This document shows positions 4,315 to 15,010 of a DNA stretch of 64,000 nt, one piece after another. The position numbers and the translations under genes were made by a program. The DNA lies in contig CAWEXO010000003.1 of NCBI GenBank assembly GCA_963813025.1, positions 1-64,000 of the forward strand, read 5' to 3'. Every line of letters begins with the position of its first letter. Within the stretch, counting starts at the first letter, position 1. The notes under the pieces are model-generated. The model was not told the DNA's origin. It worked only from the letters and a program-made list of their open reading frames with translations, and did no database searches. The DNA comes from an uncultured Verrucomicrobiae bacterium (GTDB lineage Bacteria; Verrucomicrobiota; Verrucomicrobiia; Chthoniobacterales; JAFAMB01).

Positions 4315-6315
4315 ATGGCTGAGAAAGAAGAAAGATCGTCCTCTATCCCATGGCTGCCGCTGATCTCCTTGATCCTGGTGGGCAGTGGGGTTGTCCTTTC
4401 GTTCCAACAGCTCACCAGTTCTAGGCCCGGAGGCGGCGACATCCGACTGGCGAGAGACACATTTGAGCCCGAAACCATCGACGCGAGACTTTGGGAGGAT
4501 CCTTTGGGCGTGACCGCCGCGGACCGCGACGGCAACCGAAATGGCAGCGAAGCACACGCTATCCACCGGTTTCAAAGAGTTCTCATAGATAAATGCTTCG
4601 CAGCAATACCAATCTATTCGTCCAAAAAGCATTTGTCCTTCGCGGAACAAGAGAAACAGGTACAGATGCTTTCGGGGCAGATAAAGATTTTGGCGGTGAT
4701 GCTACCAGGAGGTCCGTATGTTGAGGACGTCGAACGGCGCCTCCGCGGCCGCCGAGCGGTGATTGAGGGGTTAGCTGCGGCAGACTACGAACCCGAGAAG
4801 GACCACGAGATTGGGTATTTCTGTGTGCCATGGCAAAAACTCAATCCCACTGTCGGCGGCTGCATTTCGACGTTGGAGACGGATCGAGACAAAGATGAAA
4901 CTGGTTGGTTTTCAAATGACGTCGGGATTCATCCAATGAGAAACTACAACAGGTCAGAGGGACAGGAGTCGGACCAGCACCTCCTGGTTGTTCCTTGCGA
5001 GTGGTACGAGCAAGCGCGTTTTGGCTCCCAGGAAGGCCCTTGCCATGTGCTGGTACTCTGGCTTAACGATGCTGCATTTCGGGATGCTCCTCTCGCGCGG
5101 CTGGCAGACCTCATCTCATGGTTTCGTTTCAAACTCGTTAATTATCTTCGATTCGCCTATTTTCCGCCTTTCCCAGTATTCGCTCCCGTCTTCACAGTAC
5201 TTGGCCCGGATAATTCCGGAACGCTGCGCGAAATGGTCATGGAGGCTAACGAAGACCGGTGGGCCAATGAGACGCGGCGGTGCCTGGCGACAACCCATAT
5301 CTATTCATACCAAGCCTCAGCGGCTGATTCTCGTTTATTATATGGATTACCCGGGTCAGGTAAGTCTCCCATCTGCAAAAATCTAATCGAAGAAAAAGTC
5401 AACGCGGGCAGCGGCTTCTGCTTTGAGCGTATGAACCTTTTGGATGATCAAGTAGTAGAGACTCTGTGGCACGAATTAGGACGCCGCGGCCTTAAAAAGG
5501 ATGATCACGTCGCCATCATTTCAGAGGAGGACACGTACTATGCGCGAGCTCTGTGCTCAAGCTTTATGGACCCAGTCGTCAGTAAACTACCTCCTAAAAA
5601 TATTCAACGGTACACCTATCTCCGAGGAATCGACGGGAAGCTTCCGTCGAAGAAGAATGATGGGAAAGAAGCGAACGACGTGCCTGAGGGTGCTGCCGAC
5701 AAAAATACTCGATTCTCTTTGCGCCCGAGGGAGCGAACGGAAGGCCTTAGTCAATCAGATGATATTCGCCGCCTGGCAGAGAAGCTACAGAAATCGGATA
5801 TACACTTCAAAGCGGTCGGCCTACTCGGCAGTGATGTGTACGATAAGCTAGAGCTTCTTAAAGCACTGCGTCCGATGCTTCCTGAGGCAGTGTTTTTTAC
5901 CAACAATCTCGACGCTCGCCTGGCACATCCTGACGAGTGGAGCGAGACGCACAACCTGGTAGTTGTTTCGGCACGAGGTCTCTCCTTGGATAACGATCAG
6001 GATGTCCCCTCAACGGAAAGCGATCAGAAGTTCCCTCCATTTCGGGATAGTGCGCAGACGGCTCTTTTTGAGGCAACGTTGGAGGCAATGGGAGGACATC
6101 CTGCGATACCCAAGTCTCCCCTCATCTTTGAAATCGGGCGCAATGGCGCTGAACAGTTGGGCCTCCCAGAGGATAGGATTAAGCTATTTGCTTCATTCCA
6201 AAACTATCTCCTGCATTTCGGCTGCTTCATCGCATTCGGCTGTCTGCTTCTGGCTTGGGTATGGCTGGTTTCACGAGTCAGTTTAGTACCTTCGAATGAG
6301 GAAACCCGAGCATAA
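4315..6315 (+). CDS. Uncharacterised protein, 666 aa: N-terminal TM, large soluble domain, C-terminal TM
   Basis: Long ORF; hydrophobic segments at approx. aa 12-30 and 630-655; motifs DARLWEDP, ISEEDTYYAR, GLLGSDVYDKL, FTNNLDARL, FRDSAQT. Confidence 0.8.
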   Translation: MAEKEERSSSIPWLPLISLILVGSGVVLSFQQLTSSRPGGGDIRLARDTFEPETIDARLWEDPLGVTAADRDGNRNGSEAHAIHRFQRVLIDKCFAAIPIYSSKKHLSFAEQEKQVQMLSGQIKILAVMLPGGPYVEDVERRLRGRRAVIEGLAAADYEPEKDHEIGYFCVPWQKLNPTVGGCISTLETDRDKDETGWFSNDVGIHPMRNYNRSEGQESDQHLLVVPCEWYEQARFGSQEGPCHVLVLWLNDAAFRDAPLARLADLISWFRFKLVNYLRFAYFPPFPVFAPVFTVLGPDNSGTLREMVMEANEDRWANETRRCLATTHIYSYQASAADSRLLYGLPGSGKSPICKNLIEEKVNAGSGFCFERMNLLDDQVVETLWHELGRRGLKKDDHVAIISEEDTYYARALCSSFMDPVVSKLPPKNIQRYTYLRGIDGKLPSKKNDGKEANDVPEGAADKNTRFSLRPRERTEGLSQSDDIRRLAEKLQKSDIHFKAVGLLGSDVYDKLELLKALRPMLPEAVFFTNNLDARLAHPDEWSETHNLVVVSARGLSLDNDQDVPSTESDQKFPPFRDSAQTALFEATLEAMGGHPAIPKSPLIFEIGRNGAEQLGLPEDRIKLFASFQNYLLHFGCFIAFGCLLLAWVWLVSRVSLVPSNEETRA

Positions 6316-6343: not shown

Positions 6344-7588
6344 ATGAAGATAGGGACGTTAATGCAAGCATTGCGAAAGCATCGTGACGTAGTCGCCGCA
6401 TCGAGTTGGCTTGCAGTACCGGTCTGCGCGATTCTGGCAGGTGTAACGGTTTGTGGGATCTACATCTTTCAGAATCACTCGGGGAGGGGACAAGCGTTTG
6501 CTTGGTTCAATGGAACCAGCTCTTGGCCTTCTATTGGGATTTTTCTCTTTTCCGCGCTCTTGTCGGTGCACTTTGTGTTCAAAATGCATTTCCAACTAAA
6601 GGAAAACGCCGCCAAATTGGCAGAGGAGTTCGGATTAAAACCAGAGATCCCGAAGGAAAGTTGTTGGTTAACTTTGAAGAGGATAGCCCTCGGTTGGGAT
6701 CCGCCCAAACTTGTAGAAACCCATGCCTCCGCTGTTCTTCCCGGATGGGAAGAAGAAAAAGAGAAGAAGATCGATATCGAAGCTTTGTGGGGTCGCTATG
6801 TTTCCCGCGGCCGATTTTGGGCACGGCTGTCACGCGCAGCGCCGATGACTGTTCTTTATATGTGCGCTCTAGGCTTCCTACTACCTCTCAATGGCCATTT
6901 CCCAGACCCGCCCATGCGGGGCAATTTCAATTTTCCGTTGTTAATGTTTTTTACGATTGTCCCCTTCCTCTTCCTTACCTTTTTCGTGATCGATGCCGTT
7001 CGGCTGCACGAAGGCTTCCTCAAACAGCTCGCGTGGAAGAAGACCTATTGGCCGAACACTACCTTCGAGAAATACAAATATACCGTCAGACCCAAGGGTC
7101 CAAAAAACGAGAAACACCAAAAGAACGAGAAGCGCCCAAAAAATGAGAACAGCCTTGCGGACTATTGGGACATCCTTCTGATTGCAAGGCGCACTGAAGC
7201 AGTCGGGAATCTCATCTACTATCCTTTCGTCATTCTTTCGCTCTTGATTGCAGCCAGGTTGAAATACTTTGGTAACTGGACATGGCCGCCGGTCCTCCTC
7301 GTTGCGCTCTCCCTGCACGTCTCTCTCGCACTCTACGCAGCTTGGTGGCTTCCGAAAGTGGCAAGGGAATACCGAGACAAGGCCTTAACGCGGCTAAAGC
7401 GACGCAGGCGCCAAGATCTCATGCTTGCGCGACGGTCGCCCGAGGTAAGCGATACCATGATCGAGGAAGTTCAATCGACCCATCAGGGGGCATTCTCTTA
7501 CTTATGGGAACAGCCAGCAGTACGAGCAATCTTGTTGCCGTCCGGCGGGTTAGGTATTGCCACACTGCTTCAATACCTGCCCCACTAG
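6344..7588 (+). CDS. Uncharacterised multi-pass membrane protein, 414 aa
   Basis: About 6-7 hydrophobic segments; motifs LIYYPFVIL, AARLKYFGNW, GAFSYLWEQP.VRAILLPSGG; 28 bp after the previous gene. Confidence 0.8.
   Translation: MKIGTLMQALRKHRDVVAASSWLAVPVCAILAGVTVCGIYIFQNHSGRGQAFAWFNGTSSWPSIGIFLFSALLSVHFVFKMHFQLKENAAKLAEEFGLKPEIPKESCWLTLKRIALGWDPPKLVETHASAVLPGWEEEKEKKIDIEALWGRYVSRGRFWARLSRAAPMTVLYMCALGFLLPLNGHFPDPPMRGNFNFPLLMFFTIVPFLFLTFFVIDAVRLHEGFLKQLAWKKTYWPNTTFEKYKYTVRPKGPKNEKHQKNEKRPKNENSLADYWDILLIARRTEAVGNLIYYPFVILSLLIAARLKYFGNWTWPPVLLVALSLHVSLALYAAWWLPKVAREYRDKALTRLKRRRRQDLMLARRSPEVSDTMIEEVQSTHQGAFSYLWEQPAVRAILLPSGGLGIATLLQYLPH
7100..7150 (+). repeat. In-frame degenerate 18-bp tandem repeat (about 3 units; PKNEKH-QKNEKR-PKNEN)
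   Basis: ccaaaaaacgagaaacac / caaaagaacgagaagcgc / ccaaaaaatgagaac. Confidence 0.75.
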
Positions 7589-7920: not shown

Positions 7921-9723
7921 TTAAGTTCCGGGTGCTGATTGTGGCTTTTTTTCAAGTGCGTTCCCCCAAACTGCGATCGGCTGACCCAAGAGCTTTCTCG
8001 GGCCAACAATTTGCGGCTGTTGGCCAATGCCAAGATCTCGTAGACGAATTTGGATCGCATCCATTAATTGCTCGAACGTCAGGTTCAGCTCGTCGCTCCC
8101 GCCTTGTCCGATCGCACTAATGAGCGCGTAGGTAAATGCGCCATGGATCGTTGCGCCATCCGGATATTCAAATGACGGTTGATTATCGCCGCAGGCCTCC
8201 AGCACGACCGGAAGAAACGGTCCATCATGCTTTTGCCGTTTGCGAACCGCGTCGTAATCGGACTGCTGCAATGTTCGCAGTGGAACGGCACGTCCCAGTT
8301 TATAGGTACAATGGTTTTGTCCAGTGTAAGCGTTCTGTTCTCCATCCAGGCCAGGAAGCACACTCTTGAATTTGCGACTGACCCAGCGTTGCTCCGGAAT
8401 GTCCCATTGCAGAAAAGCGTGCCGGATCGATTCGGGAATCGGCAGGCAACGAACGCCGCTCTGTTGGGATTTGACCATTCCTCCAGAGAAGCACGAGTCG
8501 AAAATCGAGAGAAACCGCGACGCTTTTGGCAATTGGCTATACAAATCCAGGAAGTCCCGGTCGGTAATTGCGTTAAGCTTCTGCCAAGCAAAATCCACCG
8601 GCACGATTCCGTCCTCGAGGTGATCAATCACGCCATTTGTTCCCCGCCCAGGTAGCTGGATTCCATGCCCGCTATAATAAAAGATTCGATTCGCCTGATC
8701 GTTGCAGTCCGCGAGCAGCCAGTGCAAACGGTCAAGAATATTTTCTCTCGTGGCGCGTTCATTGAGAAGGACGCTAATGTCCTCGGGCGAGAAACCCTTT
8801 CCCTGAAGCGTGGCGCTCACGGCATAGACATCGTTGACACAGCCTCTGAGCTTGTTTGCCGGATCAGGATATTCATTGATCCCGACCAGTAACGCTCGGC
8901 GATGGGGAGGCTCTGTCGCCTTGTTGACAATGGCAAAGCCGCGCGAAACCAGAGTATCCTCAACCCCTCTCGAAATTGGCTCCCAAACCTGAATGAGCGT
9001 GTTCGGGTGATCGAGATAGCCGGGATTTGCGCGGATGGCGATGGGGCTGTGGCCGGCCGGAGAATCTGTTTCTACCTGGCTAAAACGCGCTTGGCCGGGC
9101 TCCGAGATAGGCGCGGTGAATGCTGGATCCAGCTTGTTGAACAAGTGATACCATTTCCTGGCCGAAACCATTGGCACCAAGCCAGCCCACATTCTGGCCC
9201 GGATAAACAGATTGGCAATCTGCGATCCACAGGTGATGTAAATCTTGCCGTCGAGCAGGTTTCGGCCGACGTCATCGTGGGTGAATAAATCGAAAGAAAG
9301 CAGTGTGCCGAGGCTATGCGCGAGAATAATGTCCGGCTGAAACTGCTGCATCGTCGTGGTGAGATCATCCCTGAGTTTTTGCCGCAGCTGTCCGTTGACG
9401 ACCCATTGTGCAACCATTCCGGCGTACCAACGACCAACGTACTTGAAAGCATCGAGAGGTTCGAATGCTCTTGGTTGCAGAGGGTCAGTGGCGGCATGCC
9501 AGGCGGCACTTCCGAGAAGCTCGGTGACCGCTTCAGCATCTTCAGCCGCGTTGCTCGGGAATTGTTCAAAAATTTGGTCATAGGAGAGCGTAGCAAATTG
9601 CAGGTTGCCTTGATTCGCTCCGCCAAAGGCGTGAACGATTGCGTCTCTCCATGGCTGATTCCAGTCACGGTTTGCTTCGGCATGTCCGATCCCGTGAATG
9701 CAGAGGATTTTGTAAGAAGGCAT
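7921..9723 (-). CDS. Alpha/beta-hydrolase - caspase family (peptidase C14, metacaspase) fusion, 600 aa
   Basis: N-terminal IHGIG and AHSLG nucleophile elbow; C-terminal RALLVGINEY..LRGCVND, YSGHG (catalytic His), DSCFSGG (catalytic Cys), HGAFTYAL. Confidence 0.88.
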   Translation of the reverse strand: MPSYKILCIHGIGHAEANRDWNQPWRDAIVHAFGGANQGNLQFATLSYDQIFEQFPSNAAEDAEAVTELLGSAAWHAATDPLQPRAFEPLDAFKYVGRWYAGMVAQWVVNGQLRQKLRDDLTTTMQQFQPDIILAHSLGTLLSFDLFTHDDVGRNLLDGKIYITCGSQIANLFIRARMWAGLVPMVSARKWYHLFNKLDPAFTAPISEPGQARFSQVETDSPAGHSPIAIRANPGYLDHPNTLIQVWEPISRGVEDTLVSRGFAIVNKATEPPHRRALLVGINEYPDPANKLRGCVNDVYAVSATLQGKGFSPEDISVLLNERATRENILDRLHWLLADCNDQANRIFYYSGHGIQLPGRGTNGVIDHLEDGIVPVDFAWQKLNAITDRDFLDLYSQLPKASRFLSIFDSCFSGGMVKSQQSGVRCLPIPESIRHAFLQWDIPEQRWVSRKFKSVLPGLDGEQNAYTGQNHCTYKLGRAVPLRTLQQSDYDAVRKRQKHDGPFLPVVLEACGDNQPSFEYPDGATIHGAFTYALISAIGQGGSDELNLTFEQLMDAIQIRLRDLGIGQQPQIVGPRKLLGQPIAVWGNALEKKPQSAPGT

Positions 9724-9845
9724 ATCGGCTCAGTGATTAATTAACGTTCATCACTTGTTTGCCGGGGTCTGTCTGTACTCCGTTGGGGTGAGTTTTGGAT
9801 TGGGGATAGACTTCCATCTGATCAACCGTGAACCGATAGGCCCTT

Positions 9846-9873
9846 CCTCGCCGTCGCTAAAGCTACGGCGGAC
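9846..9873 (-). repeat. REP-like palindromic repeat, copy 1
   Basis: Reverse complement gtccgccgtagctttagcgacggcgagg is a hairpin and matches 57722-57749 at 22/28 positions. Confidence 0.55.
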
Positions 9874-10462
9874 ACGTCAGATTTATTCTCGCTCTACCGG
9901 ACGGATGAGAAAATCTTGTCTAAAACAGACTTCATTCCTGCGGTGTCAGCCCTCCCAGGATTGCATCCAGTCCGGCTGGTTGGTCGCAACTGTACTACGA
10001 ATGACTATTATGATTTGTGCTACGGGAGGGAATCCCACCTTGGACCAGAGAATTGCAATCCGTCTAACTAAGTCGGATGGGTAATTGCCGGCTCTGCTAG
10101 TCCGGCGTTAGTTGCAGTCGTAAAATTTATGAAAACGTGGTCTGTCAATTCTTCATTACCTCTCTGCAAGGCGCTCTGCCAAGGGGACGTTCCTTCATTT
10201 TCTGAAGCCATCCAGCCAACCGCATTAGTTTCCGCGGTGAAAGAAACCAGCGGCGAAGCTGGTTTGCGACGGTTCCCGAGCAGGATCGGATATTTCCTGG
10301 CTCGGTTGGTCGATGATTCTGCTTTTCGGGAAATCTCCTCCGGGCATAAAGTCAGGGTCGCGCATACGGCGAACGGTCTGCTGGTTTATTGATCGTTGAT
10401 TGATTCCAAGAAACCTCCTTCAGCCGGGGGGAGGGCGTCTCGAGATAAAGCCCCTTAGACGG

Positions 10463-10975
10463 TTATTCGCCACCTGAATGCGCTAACATCTGCTTATCAA
10501 TCGCTTCAGCAAGATCCTTAACCTCAGCATGCTTGGGCCCAACACTTTCAACCTTGATGAAAAGGTTGCCTCGCACAAACCTCACTGCAGTCTGCGTAGT
10601 CCCGTAACCAGCAAATGCAATGTGCCCAACATAAATGTTCTTTTCCTCTGCTCGCGGCAGAGACGGAGCCATGGATTTCGATAGTTCCTCCGCAAGTTCC
10701 TCATGGGCTTGTTCAACCGTTTGGTTCTGCAAAACCGTCACGGCAAAACGGATCCCTTCATCGGAAGTACTCTTGTAATATTCGATATAACCACGAAATC
10801 CCGGTCGGTCCTCAGGCAGTTCTACTCGCCTTTCGAGCTGGAAATTAGTCTCCGCACTGGGAAGAGGGCCGAAAGCGAACGCTCTCTCTACGAGATGGGG
10901 GGCGGTCGTTTTGCCCCAGTCGTCAAAGCCGTACTCCTTTTTGATCGCGTCGTGTATTGCTTCAAATTCGCTCAT
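10463..10975 (-). CDS. Hypothetical protein, about 170 aa, translationally coupled to the upstream gene
   Basis: ATG at 10975 overlaps upstream TAA (TAATG); protein-like composition, G.IAF...RFVRGNLFIKV. Confidence 0.75.
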   Translation of the reverse strand: MSEFEAIHDAIKKEYGFDDWGKTTAPHLVERAFAFGPLPSAETNFQLERRVELPEDRPGFRGYIEYYKSTSDEGIRFAVTVLQNQTVEQAHEELAEELSKSMAPSLPRAEEKNIYVGHIAFAGYGTTQTAVRFVRGNLFIKVESVGPKHAEVKDLAEAIDKQMLAHSGGE

Positions 10976-12207
10976 TAAATCAGTCCTCTCCGACCACCCC
11001 GCGCGTTTGGCCAAGGTCCGATCGGCACGCAACGCCCAATTCCGGTCTCAGAATTTTGCGCCAATCTTTCCCGATAACCTGCCATATCTACCGGCGTTGG
11101 AATAGGCAAATTCGGAACCTCACCATGATTGGTGAAGATCTCATTGGCTGGCAACATGGGGGTGTGAGTCAAAACCGGATCCGTCCAGTCCCAGGGATTA
11201 CTGCTGTGATCCGCCAGGAGACAAGCATCGAAGATTTGGTCCCCGTGCTTGAATGCACCTGTCCAAGCCACCTCGTGATAGGCAAACCGGTTCGCTGGCG
11301 GGAAAGGATAATTCCATAACGCGCCTTTACCGATCGCAATGATCTTGTTACAGAGGAATCCTCCGGGACTGGCCATCACCGCTGCAGCCAACTGACAGCC
11401 GAGGAGATTCGCAAATGATGAAACGATCGTCGCGCAGTCGGTGCAGTTCACAACGTCTCCTTTGCCTTCCGGCTGCCGGTTGATAAATGCCAGAAAGGCC
11501 GTGCATAAAAACCAGGAAATGTTGCCCACCGCCTGGGCGTACTTGCTCGCTCCATGAGAAACGTCATAGGTGAGCCCTAAGTTGCTATTGACGGCCTGCG
11601 TAACGGCTGTAGCGGCATCCAGCGGATTCAGTTTTCCTCCAGCCCATACGCAGGCTTGGTCCAGAGCGTCAACCCAAGGCAACTGGGTCACGGAAGCGGG
11701 CACGGTCGGAGGTTGTAGCCAGGGCAAGCAGGGACTGTCCAATACGACGTAGACCCGATGCGAGGAACTGCCCATTGAGACCCACGTCTCGTCGCTCGAT
11801 TTATAAAACCAATCCCATTGAATGTCCTGCTTTAGAATTCCCCACGGCCCGATTTGATGATGTGCCAGGCTTAGCGTGACGAATTCAGGAACCGAAGTTC
11901 CACCGCTGATGTTGATCGTCGTTGGATCGATTGCGCCTAACACCCCGCCCCCCTCAGCGCGCACATCGATCGTGGCCGGCGCTCCCGGATCGGCAGCGAA
12001 GCTGGCTTGAATGGTGATGATTTTGCCTGTTACGGCGGCTATCGAGTACGCGACCGGCGAGCTTTTGGGGAGCGTCTTGCCCTTGACCCATTCAGGAACA
12101 GCAACACCGGTAGCGAAATTCTGGCGAATGGACAACGCATTCACCAGCCCGGTGCTCTGACCGCAATTAAATTTGATCCCGGTAAGTTCCATTCCCTCAT
12201 GCCGCAC
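10975..12207 (-). CDS. Hypothetical protein, about 405-410 aa, with a putative transglutaminase/papain-like Cys-His-Asp triad
   Basis: VNCTDCATIVSSFANLLGC, FAYHEVAW, IFDACL in triad order; start is GTG 12207 or ATG 12192; no signal peptide. Confidence 0.7.
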   Translation of the reverse strand: MRHEGMELTGIKFNCGQSTGLVNALSIRQNFATGVAVPEWVKGKTLPKSSPVAYSIAAVTGKIITIQASFAADPGAPATIDVRAEGGGVLGAIDPTTINISGGTSVPEFVTLSLAHHQIGPWGILKQDIQWDWFYKSSDETWVSMGSSSHRVYVVLDSPCLPWLQPPTVPASVTQLPWVDALDQACVWAGGKLNPLDAATAVTQAVNSNLGLTYDVSHGASKYAQAVGNISWFLCTAFLAFINRQPEGKGDVVNCTDCATIVSSFANLLGCQLAAAVMASPGGFLCNKIIAIGKGALWNYPFPPANRFAYHEVAWTGAFKHGDQIFDACLLADHSSNPWDWTDPVLTHTPMLPANEIFTNHGEVPNLPIPTPVDMAGYRERLAQNSETGIGRCVPIGPWPNARGGRRGLI

Positions 12208-14558: not shown

Positions 14559-14599
14559 AGATACGAAGATTAAATGCGCTGATGCTCTGGTCTATCAAC

Positions 14600-15010
14600 A
14601 CGAAAATCGAAAGCGGGAGTAATCCAATGACCTCTGCAAGAGCTCAAGTCGCAGATCGATTCGTCGTTGGTCCGATCAAAAAGCTTGGTAATCCTCGGTG
14701 ACCCGTGCCCGGCCATTTGCTGGGCGTGTTCCAGCCGACCGCCATTTTCCAAGTAAACCGTAACGCCCGTGTCGCGCCAGGTATGACAGACGACAGGCGT
14801 CGAAAACCCTGCTTGTTTGGCTCTTTTTCGGATCGCGACCCAAGCGTTACTGCGGTCGAGCGAACGGCCCGTTAAAGCAGTCCCAATTTTTGTAATACTC
14901 TGAAACAATGGTTCGTTATCGTCGAAGCTCACAGCAGAGAGATATTCATCCAGCGCCTCTTCAATCTGGGTGATGTGCTGGTATTCGTGTTCTTTACCGC
15001 CTTCTCTCGC
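14600..15010 (-). pseudogene. Tyrosine recombinase/integrase C-terminal remnant
   Basis: CHTWRDTGVTVYLENGG.LEHAQQMAGH.SPRITKLFDR; catalytic Tyr position reads Phe; degenerate EKGGKEHE-like piece near 15010; boundaries approximate. Confidence 0.75.

Follow-up and report, generated by a model that had tools for sequence, protein, structure and literature searches.

A sensor-less alpha/beta-hydrolase–metacaspase fusion as a candidate single-chain, protease-gated death effector of bacteria

Protease-gated death effectors are emerging as a main logic of bacterial immunity, and the alpha/beta-hydrolase modules described so far consist of two genes together with large sensors. The pairing of an alpha/beta hydrolase with a caspase is already in print, as computation in 2020 and as experiment in 2025: Kaur et al. 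2020 (PMC7159879) report that, in VMAP conflict systems, a caspase domain is always accompanied by an alpha/beta hydrolase in its neighbourhood, and the preprint of Evans et al. 2025 (PMC12642450) places the alpha/beta hydrolase among the most abundant protease-associated effectors. According to the text of that preprint (PMC12642450), LcCaspase of Lysobacter capsici AZ78 (Cys129) cuts LcHydrolase at the R73–G and R117–G bonds; N- and C-terminal pieces of LcHydrolase, when co-expressed, kill Escherichia coli solely if the protein is split at the exact bond; and LcHydrolase is a zymogen that becomes lethal after caspase cleavage, to which that text assigns no substrate class. Here we analyse a stretch of 64,000 nucleotides from an uncultured Verrucomicrobiae bacterium (contig CAWEXO010000003.1, positions 1 to 64,000; hereafter the window), in which one gene at positions 7921–9723 encodes a 600-residue protein, P0001, that joins an alpha/beta hydrolase to a metacaspase in one chain. 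Our analysis suggests that P0001 is likely a fused, sensor-less variant of the known anti-phage module, and we put the probability that it is a single-chain, self-contained protease-gated death effector at roughly 0.55. We found no description of such a single-chain, sensor-less metacaspase-type form in the literature, including the text of the preprint, the figures and supplements of which may show such forms.

The minus strand of 7921–9723 is one open reading frame (ORF); a plus-strand reading was rejected, as its translation is riddled with stops. A first-pass annotation made from the sequence alone had placed a gene at exactly these coordinates, which we keep with the strand corrected to minus. 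All six of the motifs it had named are located in P0001 (H10-G11 within ILCIHGIGH, S137, D199, H225, H353 and C411), and both sets are conserved throughout the aligned family, in 99/99 rows for the hydrolase and 98/98 for the metacaspase dyad. These counts come from alignment A2, with 99 rows, of which 98 are full-length homologues used for the dyad; a smaller alignment, A1, holds 34 sequences. No signal peptide, as the same annotation had stated, and no membrane segment was found in P0001: the highest 19-residue Kyte-Doolittle mean is 1.09, and the chain opens directly with a strand at residues 4–9. Searches of P0001 in Pfam, PADLOC and NCBIfam detected no domain beyond C14. The full-length AlphaFold model (predicted local distance difference test score, pLDDT, 81.3; predicted template modelling score, pTM, 0.80) recovers both the elbow/acid/His order of the hydrolase and the metacaspase fold. 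P0001 therefore looks like a leaderless two-enzyme protein with both catalytic sets apparently intact. The genome that carries it (4.4 Mb, 80% complete) holds one copy of the gene.

The N-terminal half is invisible to the sequence libraries that we searched: residues 1–270 have no match at E≤1 in Pfam, NCBIfam or PADLOC, and against the Protein Data Bank (PDB) phmmer gave no match for these residues and a profile search gave 0 matches at E≤10. Judged by its AlphaFold model, calculated for the domain alone with the 99-row alignment (pLDDT 85.8, pTM 0.86), the N-domain is certainly an alpha/beta hydrolase in fold: the nucleophile elbow (small-x-Ser-x-small) lies between a strand and a helix, as expected of that fold; the HG motif and the S137-D199-H225 set follow the canonical order; and H10, G11, S137, D199 and H225 are each unchanged in all 99 aligned rows. 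H239 was considered as the catalytic histidine and rejected because it is not invariant (conserved in 92/99 rows only, N or Q in 7/99). A helical insert (about residues 50–130), which contains the loop 78–98 discussed below, precedes the nucleophile strand.

An exhaustive structural search with VIA-align returned 385 of 48,161 chains at Z≥8, and its best 50 entries (Z 11.2–13.8) are almost all named or recognisable alpha/beta-fold hydrolases. Closest, at Z 12.9–13.8, are minimal lipases, LCAT/PGAP1-type hydrolases and the Nir2 DDHD domain, represented by B. subtilis LipA (1i6w), the lipase Lip_vut1 (6nkc, Z 13.8), lysosomal phospholipase A2 (LPLA2, 4x90, Z 13.1) and Nir2 (9jyx, Z 12.9, with the longest alignment, 204 residues); a carboxylesterase also reaches 13.1. 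None of these lipases and DDHD domains has a detectable sequence relationship to the N-domain, which differs from them in carrying its helical insert between the second strand and the nucleophile strand. Foldseek with the N-domain was weak, the best match again being the Nir2 DDHD domain (E 4.7e-4), and the ESM-Atlas neighbours, labelled LCAT, PGAP1, DUF900 and DUF676 (score 0.87), serve as a lead only. Since lipases, esterases and thioesterases score alike, with thioesterases and carboxylesterases matching the N-domain as well as lipases do, lipase activity is not implied by the fold; the first-pass label "lipase" is not upheld, and a lipase identity of the N-domain is unproven.

Profile comparison shows that the N-domain is homologous to hydrolase effectors linked to proteases. 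We ran an N-domain profile (A3) on 401 genomes of the gammaproteobacterial order that contains locus L076, where the full fused family occurs in 2 genomes, and aligned the distant matches as A4. Beyond those 2 genomes, weaker matches appeared in 31 (for 28 of these, E per genome ranged from 8e-8 to 4e-17), all falling on the catalytic core (profile positions about 100–241). Nineteen of the weaker matches are open frames of 802–967 amino acids (aa) (L093–L099, L101–L105, L107–L109, L111, L112, L116 and L118). In L093 the hydrolase is fused to a Peptidase_S8 domain (Pfam E 2e-43) behind a long Lys/Ala/Pro-rich N-terminus; L094 and L095 show, by eye, the same subtilisin motifs, and the rest of the 19 are known by profile match and length. 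The hydrolase–subtilisin protein is thus, on this sequence evidence, a second kind of single-chain hydrolase–protease fusion.

The remaining weaker matches are stand-alone hydrolases of about 290–320 aa. At four loci (L122, L123, L128 and L129) they adjoin TPR-S+Trypsin_2 proteases, as assigned by Pfam, in surroundings with ThsB-TIR, TIR, TIR+nSTAND1, DUF4062 or WD40 genes; five others lie immediately downstream of caspase-like proteins that are homologous to one another and bear FxGHG and DACR motifs (L120, L121, L124, L125 and L126), of which L124 exceeds the Pfam C14 cut-off (37.3 bits) and L125 falls just under it (20.1 bits). The L126 frame is over-called at its start, and its cysteine is residue 129 when counted from the start of the alignment with shorter homologues; the adjoining 298-aa hydrolase, L119, shows R73–G and R114–G bonds, and the same pair of (R/K)–G motifs, spaced by about 41 residues, recurs in the other caspase-linked hydrolases. 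Given that R73, R114 and Cys129 nearly reproduce the published numbering, we take the caspase-linked hydrolases to be the LcHydrolase family, an equivalence drawn from order-level taxonomy, gene order, length and site numbering. Between the fused N-domain family and the stand-alone family, hhalign gives a probability of 99.5% (E 9.8e-23, 243 columns), a score that is not fully independent because A4 was collected with the A3 profile, and it aligns the HG motif, W25, the GHSLG serine, the Asp, the His and the following Y-L. The idea of a single-chain protease-gated hydrolase for cell death, put forward in the first-pass annotation, is consequently well founded, as the N-domain is homologous to hydrolases that are paired with LcCaspase-like proteases, one of which, LcHydrolase, is toxic after cleavage according to the preprint text (PMC12642450). 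Because the protease of P0001 is not of the LcCaspase lineage but a canonical metacaspase, proteases of four types are, as far as these sequences go, tied to the hydrolase superfamily: caspase-like, fused metacaspase, trypsin-like and fused subtilisin.

P0001 and the LcHydrolase/LcCaspase pair share a homologous hydrolase domain with the same HG...GHSLG...D...H layout, and in both a leaderless hydrolase is coupled to a C14-type cysteine protease, physically so in P0001. Within the lid region of P0001 there is, moreover, a conserved basic residue with G/A after it that lines up with the second of the published cleavage sites. The two differ in that P0001 is one chain with the hydrolase first, whereas the published module is two genes; in that P0001 has for its protease a canonical metacaspase, which includes a p10-like part and a conserved insert; in that the ~44-residue middle fragment excised from LcHydrolase has shrunk to a short loop; and in that the neighbours of the fused family are other hydrolases, not TIR/STAND genes. 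With the Peptidase_S8 fusions and the hydrolases linked to TPR-S trypsins, P0001 shares the hydrolase superfamily and the logic of a hydrolase tied to a protease. The S8 fusions, however, have another protease class and a long, basic low-complexity N-terminus, and the trypsin-linked hydrolases are separate genes in TIR/nSTAND/WD40 neighbourhoods.

The predicted cleavage region is a low-confidence loop of the hydrolase at residues 78–98, which we refer to as the lid loop. Its most conserved basic position, R85, aligns by hhalign with the second R–G site of the LcHydrolase-like stand-alone hydrolases, and the segment from H76 to W99 varies between 20 and 42 residues across the 99 rows. We infer from alignment and model that a basic site in an exposed lid loop, of the kind that a metacaspase would require in its substrate, is retained by the fused family, and predict cleavage there.

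By sequence and model alike, the C-terminal domain is a canonical metacaspase. Pfam Peptidase_C14 (PF00656) covers residues 275–573 (E 5e-28, 98.8 bits against a cut-off of 21.4); PDB sequence matches are fungal, plant and trypanosome metacaspases (E 5e-20); and Foldseek with the C-terminal half retrieves AtMC9 (E 1.8e-15) as well as AtMC4, Yca1, TbMCA2 and GSU0716. C411 is aligned with the mutated catalytic position of AtMC9 C147A (chain 8a53). C295 and D298 are invariant in A1 and D409 is present in 98/98 homologues; these three are candidates for the acidic S1 pocket, by analogy with TbMCA2. Metacaspases in general have Arg/Lys specificity, and the eukaryotic ones are activated by Ca2+; for P0001 both properties are assumed from the family. 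With the described metacaspases (MEROPS C14B; Yca1, TbMCA2, AtMC4, AtMC9, GSU0716) P0001 shares the His-Cys dyad, the D-x-C motif, the Pfam C14 domain and the fold, and it differs from them in having an enzymatic N-terminal domain in place of a prodomain and, as a family, its own conserved insert at residues 420–500, which could be an autoinhibitory or autoprocessing region. The NCBIfam model for EACC1-associated caspases (NF047832) gives P0001 51.8 bits, far under its cut-off of 140. PADLOC-DB v2 gives a partial match to its generic "caspase" model (positions 3–130 of 453, E 7e-17) and no partner genes among the window's 7 neighbours.

P0001 belongs to a large family. A word-seeded HMMER search yielded at least 755 proteins at E≤1e-3 among 7,997 scored candidates, and among the best 120 full-length matches listed, PF00656 is present in 120/120, 117/120 cover at least 95% of the query at 39–93% identity, and the names, where given, are solely "caspase family protein" or "metacaspase-1". 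Scanning a single genome for each species confirmed at least 531 relatives among at least 597 pattern matches, in Verrucomicrobiota, Alpha-, Beta-, Gamma- and "Delta"-proteobacteria, Gemmatimonadota, Planctomycetota, Nitrospira, Chloroflexota, Acidobacteriota and others, with cultured hosts in Pseudomonas, Bradyrhizobium, Cupriavidus, Geomonas and Sulfuriferula. Short N-domain-only proteins also turned up (17 matches in a single-sequence search, 124 in a profile search), mostly from short contigs and with no other alpha/beta-hydrolase Pfam label. As candidates for stand-alone N-domains of the fused family they were rejected: those inspected are fragments or frameshifted full-length genes, such as P0129, which runs into the caspase start RRALLVGIN before the frame is lost. 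No free-living form of the fused family is established, given that the inspected short matches are broken full-length genes, and the hydrolase–metacaspase fusion is obligate. Its distribution is patchy, as with accessory genes, since a strong match occurs solely in the own genome among 401 sampled genomes of the phylum and in 2/401 of the gammaproteobacterial order.

Two shortened forms occur in Bradyrhizobium japonicum (P0149 and P0180), one of which, of 409 aa, is named "pimeloyl-ACP methyl ester carboxylesterase" in its source. A polybasic C-terminal tail is found in 49/98 homologues (at least 5 K/R in the last 15 residues, up to 9) and may bind anionic membrane or nucleic acid; P0001 has a weaker tail, with KK only.

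The mechanism that we propose for P0001 would run as follows. In the resting state, the lid loop 78–98 would keep the hydrolase inactive. A trigger, for which phage infection, envelope or ion stress and Ca2+ are candidates (Ca2+ switches on eukaryotic metacaspases), would turn on the metacaspase. Its cleavage would follow behind the conserved R85 (P1' G/A/D) and possibly also behind R98, either in cis or with one copy cutting another. Once released, the hydrolase would act on an ester or a peptide, perhaps a membrane lipid, and the cell would be killed or lysed. As P0001 has no separate sensor domain, sensing would have to reside in the metacaspase, in its 420–500 insert or in a partner encoded elsewhere.

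Several observations weigh against this proposal. The first concerns sensing: unlike the published modules, neither P0001 nor its neighbours have a sensor domain (WD40, STAND, TPR). We compared 80 related loci, with ORFs from a simple codon-position-GC caller, a neighbour census by tblastn and labels from Pfam; sensor genes (STAND, WD40, TPR, TIR) are absent among the window neighbours and among the 245 neighbour ORFs of these loci scanned with Pfam (125 adjacent ones plus 120 same-strand second or third neighbours, with opposite-strand second and third neighbours outside the scan). TIR/STAND/WD40 contexts are confined to the distant stand-alone relatives. Large neighbours of 1345–1771 aa were considered as STAND sensors and rejected, as they have no Pfam or PADLOC match and are not conserved between loci; the 1771-aa frame is probably spurious. 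The second concerns defence context. The window's 7 neighbours match no PADLOC model, and among 90 proteins searched (7 from the window and 83, mainly Pfam-silent, from the loci) PADLOC found just REase_II, a PglW fragment and two caspases. In 50,697 phage and 72,556 plasmid records, 0 matches cover at least 80% of the query, the C14 half alone being matched. The enrichment near defence genes that the first-pass annotation had named as a test of its reading is thus not borne out for the fused family, with 2/83 neighbours matching defence models (REase_II, PglW fragment) and no full-length relative on phages or plasmids; its analogy to CapV, presumably a patatin-fold enzyme, holds at the functional level only, and its alternative of a hydrolase-sensing protease is neither favoured nor disfavoured by the evidence. 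The third concerns the link to LcHydrolase, where the equivalence of the caspase-linked hydrolases with the published protein is drawn from taxonomy, gene order, length and site numbering and the hhalign score has the partial dependence given above. The fused family has nothing that corresponds to the region around the first of the published cleavage sites, and with this region missing and a segment of 20–42 residues, the published double cleavage is not directly transferable. By BLASTP, the P0001 metacaspase and the L124 caspase-like protein match at E 0.067 and thus represent different C14 lineages, so that metacaspase specificity for the lid loop is unproven.

If P0001 is indeed a protease-gated effector, it would place effector and canonical metacaspase in one 600-aa protein without a sensor, in hundreds of species including culturable ones. 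It would then be the simplest system in which to ask how a bacterial metacaspase is turned on, what these hydrolases act on and whether bacterial metacaspases execute cell death, a question that has stood since the discovery of these enzymes. The N-domain merits a family model of its own, because current annotation names these proteins merely "caspase family protein". The coordinates of all features are collected in Table 1.

Table 1. Features of the hydrolase–metacaspase gene and of the flanking reading frames, in window coordinates
Feature	Position	Strand	Remarks
Whole ORF, alpha/beta hydrolase fused to metacaspase, 600 aa (P0001)	7921..9723	-	Single copy in own genome
N-terminal alpha/beta-hydrolase domain, residues 1-255	8959..9723	-	Predicted from AlphaFold model, VIA-align, hhalign; uncovered by Pfam, NCBIfam and PADLOC models
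H10-G11, oxyanion-hole-type HG motif after first strand (4-9)	9691..9696	-	99/99; aligns with H8-G9 of stand-alone relatives
Low-confidence lid loop, residues 78-98; predicted protease cleavage region	9430..9492	-	pLDDT <50 in full model
R85	9469-9471	-	K/R in 98/99; then G 49, A 24, D 22, E 4
R98	9430-9432	-	K/R in 93/99; directly before near-invariant W99, which opens the next helix
A-H-S-L-G nucleophile elbow, Ser137	9307..9321	-	S137 99/99; strand 132-136, then helix 138-149
Asp199, candidate triad acid (NKLDP)	9127..9129	-	99/99; after strand 190-195
His225, candidate triad base (AGHS)	9049..9051	-	99/99; after strand 214-218
Inter-domain helix/linker, residues 256-272	8908..8958	-	Partly low confidence, pLDDT <50 at 257-264
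Metacaspase (Peptidase C14) domain, residues 273-583: p20-like part, conserved insert, p10-like part	7975..8907	-	Pfam, PDB sequence matches, Foldseek
S-G-H-G, catalytic His353	8662..8673	-	98/98; aligns with ysGHG of solved metacaspases
D-S-C-F-S-G-G, catalytic Cys411, Asp409 two residues earlier	8479..8499	-	Cys and Asp each 98/98
Conserved insert between p20- and p10-like parts, residues 420-500	8224..8466	-	Invariant R425, P430, H435, W440, W447, R450 (A1, 34 sequences)
666-aa ORF	4315-6315	+	Hydrophobic membrane-like stretches by eye
414-aa ORF	6344-7588	+	Hydrophobic membrane-like stretches by eye
189-aa ORF	10463-11032	-	Flanks gene
410-aa ORF	10975-12207	-	Flanks gene

The main rival explanation is compatible with the gating mechanism and differs from it mainly in purpose: P0001 would be a member of a multi-enzyme self-lysis or proteolytic-cascade toolkit for regulated autolysis (development, release of public goods or of tail-like particles), not necessarily anti-phage. 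Its metacaspase would activate, or be activated by, leaderless neighbour zymogens (C11, extra C14, C70, astacin-like), and the hydrolase would open the membrane from within and so give leaderless murein hydrolases access to the wall. The gene census speaks for this explanation. The 80 loci hold 352 neighbour ORFs in 281 clusters, and 31 loci have at least one peptidase or murein-hydrolase neighbour, always on the same strand and mostly within 150 bp: clostripain-like C11 (8/80 loci), stand-alone C14 (9/80), C70 (3/80), astacin-like (7/80), Amidase_2 (3/80), PG_binding_1+CHAP (3/80) and Rv2525c-like+SH3 (1/80), with one gene each for patatin-like, GDSL and C1 proteins. The partner-bearing loci come from several phyla, with partners on either side of the gene, and the 31 C11, C14, C70, peptidoglycan-hydrolase and astacin-like neighbours with N-termini inspected all start at the domain, without a signal peptide. 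The homologue P0003 carries an Rv2525c-like domain fused at its C-terminus; the Sulfuriferula multivorans locus adds astacin-like, Amidase_2+SH3 and patatin-like genes; and at locus L009 sheath, tube and Pvc16_N genes follow the gene directly downstream. For metacaspases in general, partners of the protease and amidase kind were described by Asplund-Samuelsson et al. 2012 (PMC3501461). Against these observations, the window has no such neighbour and neither do 49/80 loci, many of them on short contigs; the partners are interchangeable rather than conserved; and 31/80 is a raw count from a crude ORF caller, with no random-locus background rate. We regard the self-lysis toolkit as unlikely.

A combination of the two ideas can also be formulated, in which P0001 would be the sensor-less core of an executioner cascade: the metacaspase would sense damage itself (for example ion influx), cut its own hydrolase at R85 and activate the interchangeable leaderless neighbour zymogens (clostripain-like, extra caspase, C70, astacin-like, murein hydrolases), thereby dismantling membrane, proteome and wall in an apoptosis-like process spread by gene transfer across many phyla. 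We consider this scheme speculative and decidedly unlikely.

The logic could also run in reverse, with the metacaspase as the effector (by broad or targeted proteolysis) and the hydrolase as a regulator or sensor that, for instance, binds or hydrolyses a small ester or lipid signal. An effector-less caspase-like protease protects E. coli from phages in the preprint text (Evans et al., PMC12642450), conservation of the 420–500 insert, and of the C14 domain as a whole, equals that of the hydrolase, and no other sensor is visible in P0001. A regulator, however, would not need the full triad and oxyanion motif conserved in 99/99 rows, and the homologous stand-alone hydrolase is the toxic component of the system tested in the preprint (PMC12642450); we give the reversed arrangement little credence.

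That P0001 is an exported or injected toxin, the cargo of a contractile injection system or of another leaderless export route acting on other cells, appears extremely improbable. Like many such cargoes it is leaderless, half of its homologues have the polybasic tail, and the L009 gene stands in a same-strand hydrolase run beside sheath, gp19 tube and Pvc16_N genes; this context is nevertheless confined to 1/80 loci, tblastn with the L009 sheath and tube being empty in all other loci, the own genome offers a lone Pvc16_N on another contig with no match to sheath, tube or VipB, and no conserved immunity-like neighbour was seen. A housekeeping bifunctional enzyme, for example in lipid or protein turnover and without a role in cell death, can hardly be credited, since the mostly unrelated metabolic or transport genes of the neighbourhoods and the automatic carboxylesterase name of the truncated Bradyrhizobium form are set against a sparse, patchy distribution, a domain homologous to a proven death effector, and an obligate protease link with recurrent hydrolase neighbours unlike a core metabolic role.

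A fusion of related design was described earlier in Chitinophaga pinensis, where metacaspases are fused to Amidase_2 and to a GDSL lipase and were read by the authors as a combined lipase/amidase/protease weapon (Asplund-Samuelsson et al. 2012, PMC3501461). In both cases a bacterial metacaspase is joined to a lipid- or wall-degrading enzyme (in P0001 putatively so), but the fold is SGNH/GDSL there and alpha/beta here, and the one-off of C. pinensis contrasts with a large conserved family. As the N-domain has no Pfam match, we infer that a survey based on Pfam domains would not have registered the fused family.

In the window, the gene stands alone, convergent with the 414-aa membrane ORF and 740 bp downstream of the next minus-strand ORF. 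For none of the four flanking ORFs (666, 414, 189 and 410 aa) is there a match in Pfam or PADLOC, nor does any of them recur next to a homologue. An Rfam scan of 9600–10600, upstream of the gene, gave no match at E≤1, and scanning the surroundings of the gene for promoters and terminators brought up nothing beyond the shuffled expectation. At a distance of about 5 kb, a 120-aa ORF at 14570–14932 on the minus strand matches only the C-terminal part of the phage integrase family (profile positions 101–170 of 172) and looks like a tyrosine-recombinase remnant. Elsewhere in the own genome, a lone Pvc16_N-domain ORF (G000:C11:899561-900016, minus strand, 172 aa, 72 bits) was found; sheath, gp19 tube and VipB were not matched in this 80% complete assembly.

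Individual loci show further arrangements. The S. multivorans locus (L012:2-17726) is an island of leaderless hydrolases with all but one gene on the same strand: three unnamed genes (364, 1649 and 634 aa), the fusion protein, a C70 protease, an unnamed gene, an astacin-like gene, Amidase_2+SH3 and a 907-aa patatin-like gene. At L009:4362-17745, a same-strand run comprises an astacin-like gene, two unnamed genes, the hydrolase–metacaspase and an Rv2525c-like+SH3 murein hydrolase. After this run come genes for a phage-type tail sheath, gp19 tube and Pvc16_N (an operon resembling an extracellular contractile injection system, in 1/80 loci); the run could be a lysis or cargo module. In Bradyrhizobium stylosanthis, the fusion gene has, 20 bp downstream, a second C14 gene of the stand-alone type (L072:7983-10707). 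A second match in that species (L090:892-1923) is an LcHydrolase-like stand-alone hydrolase with two K–G motifs and an apparent twin-arginine-like leader (RREIL and a hydrophobic stretch ending in AxA); if the start call is right, it appears to be an exported member of an otherwise leaderless family. Finally, at a Verrucomicrobiae locus (L006:11279-11602) the third gene downstream from the fusion encodes a cysteine-protease inhibitor of the chagasin family (I42), and at locus L025 a papain-like C1 protease lies at a similar distance.

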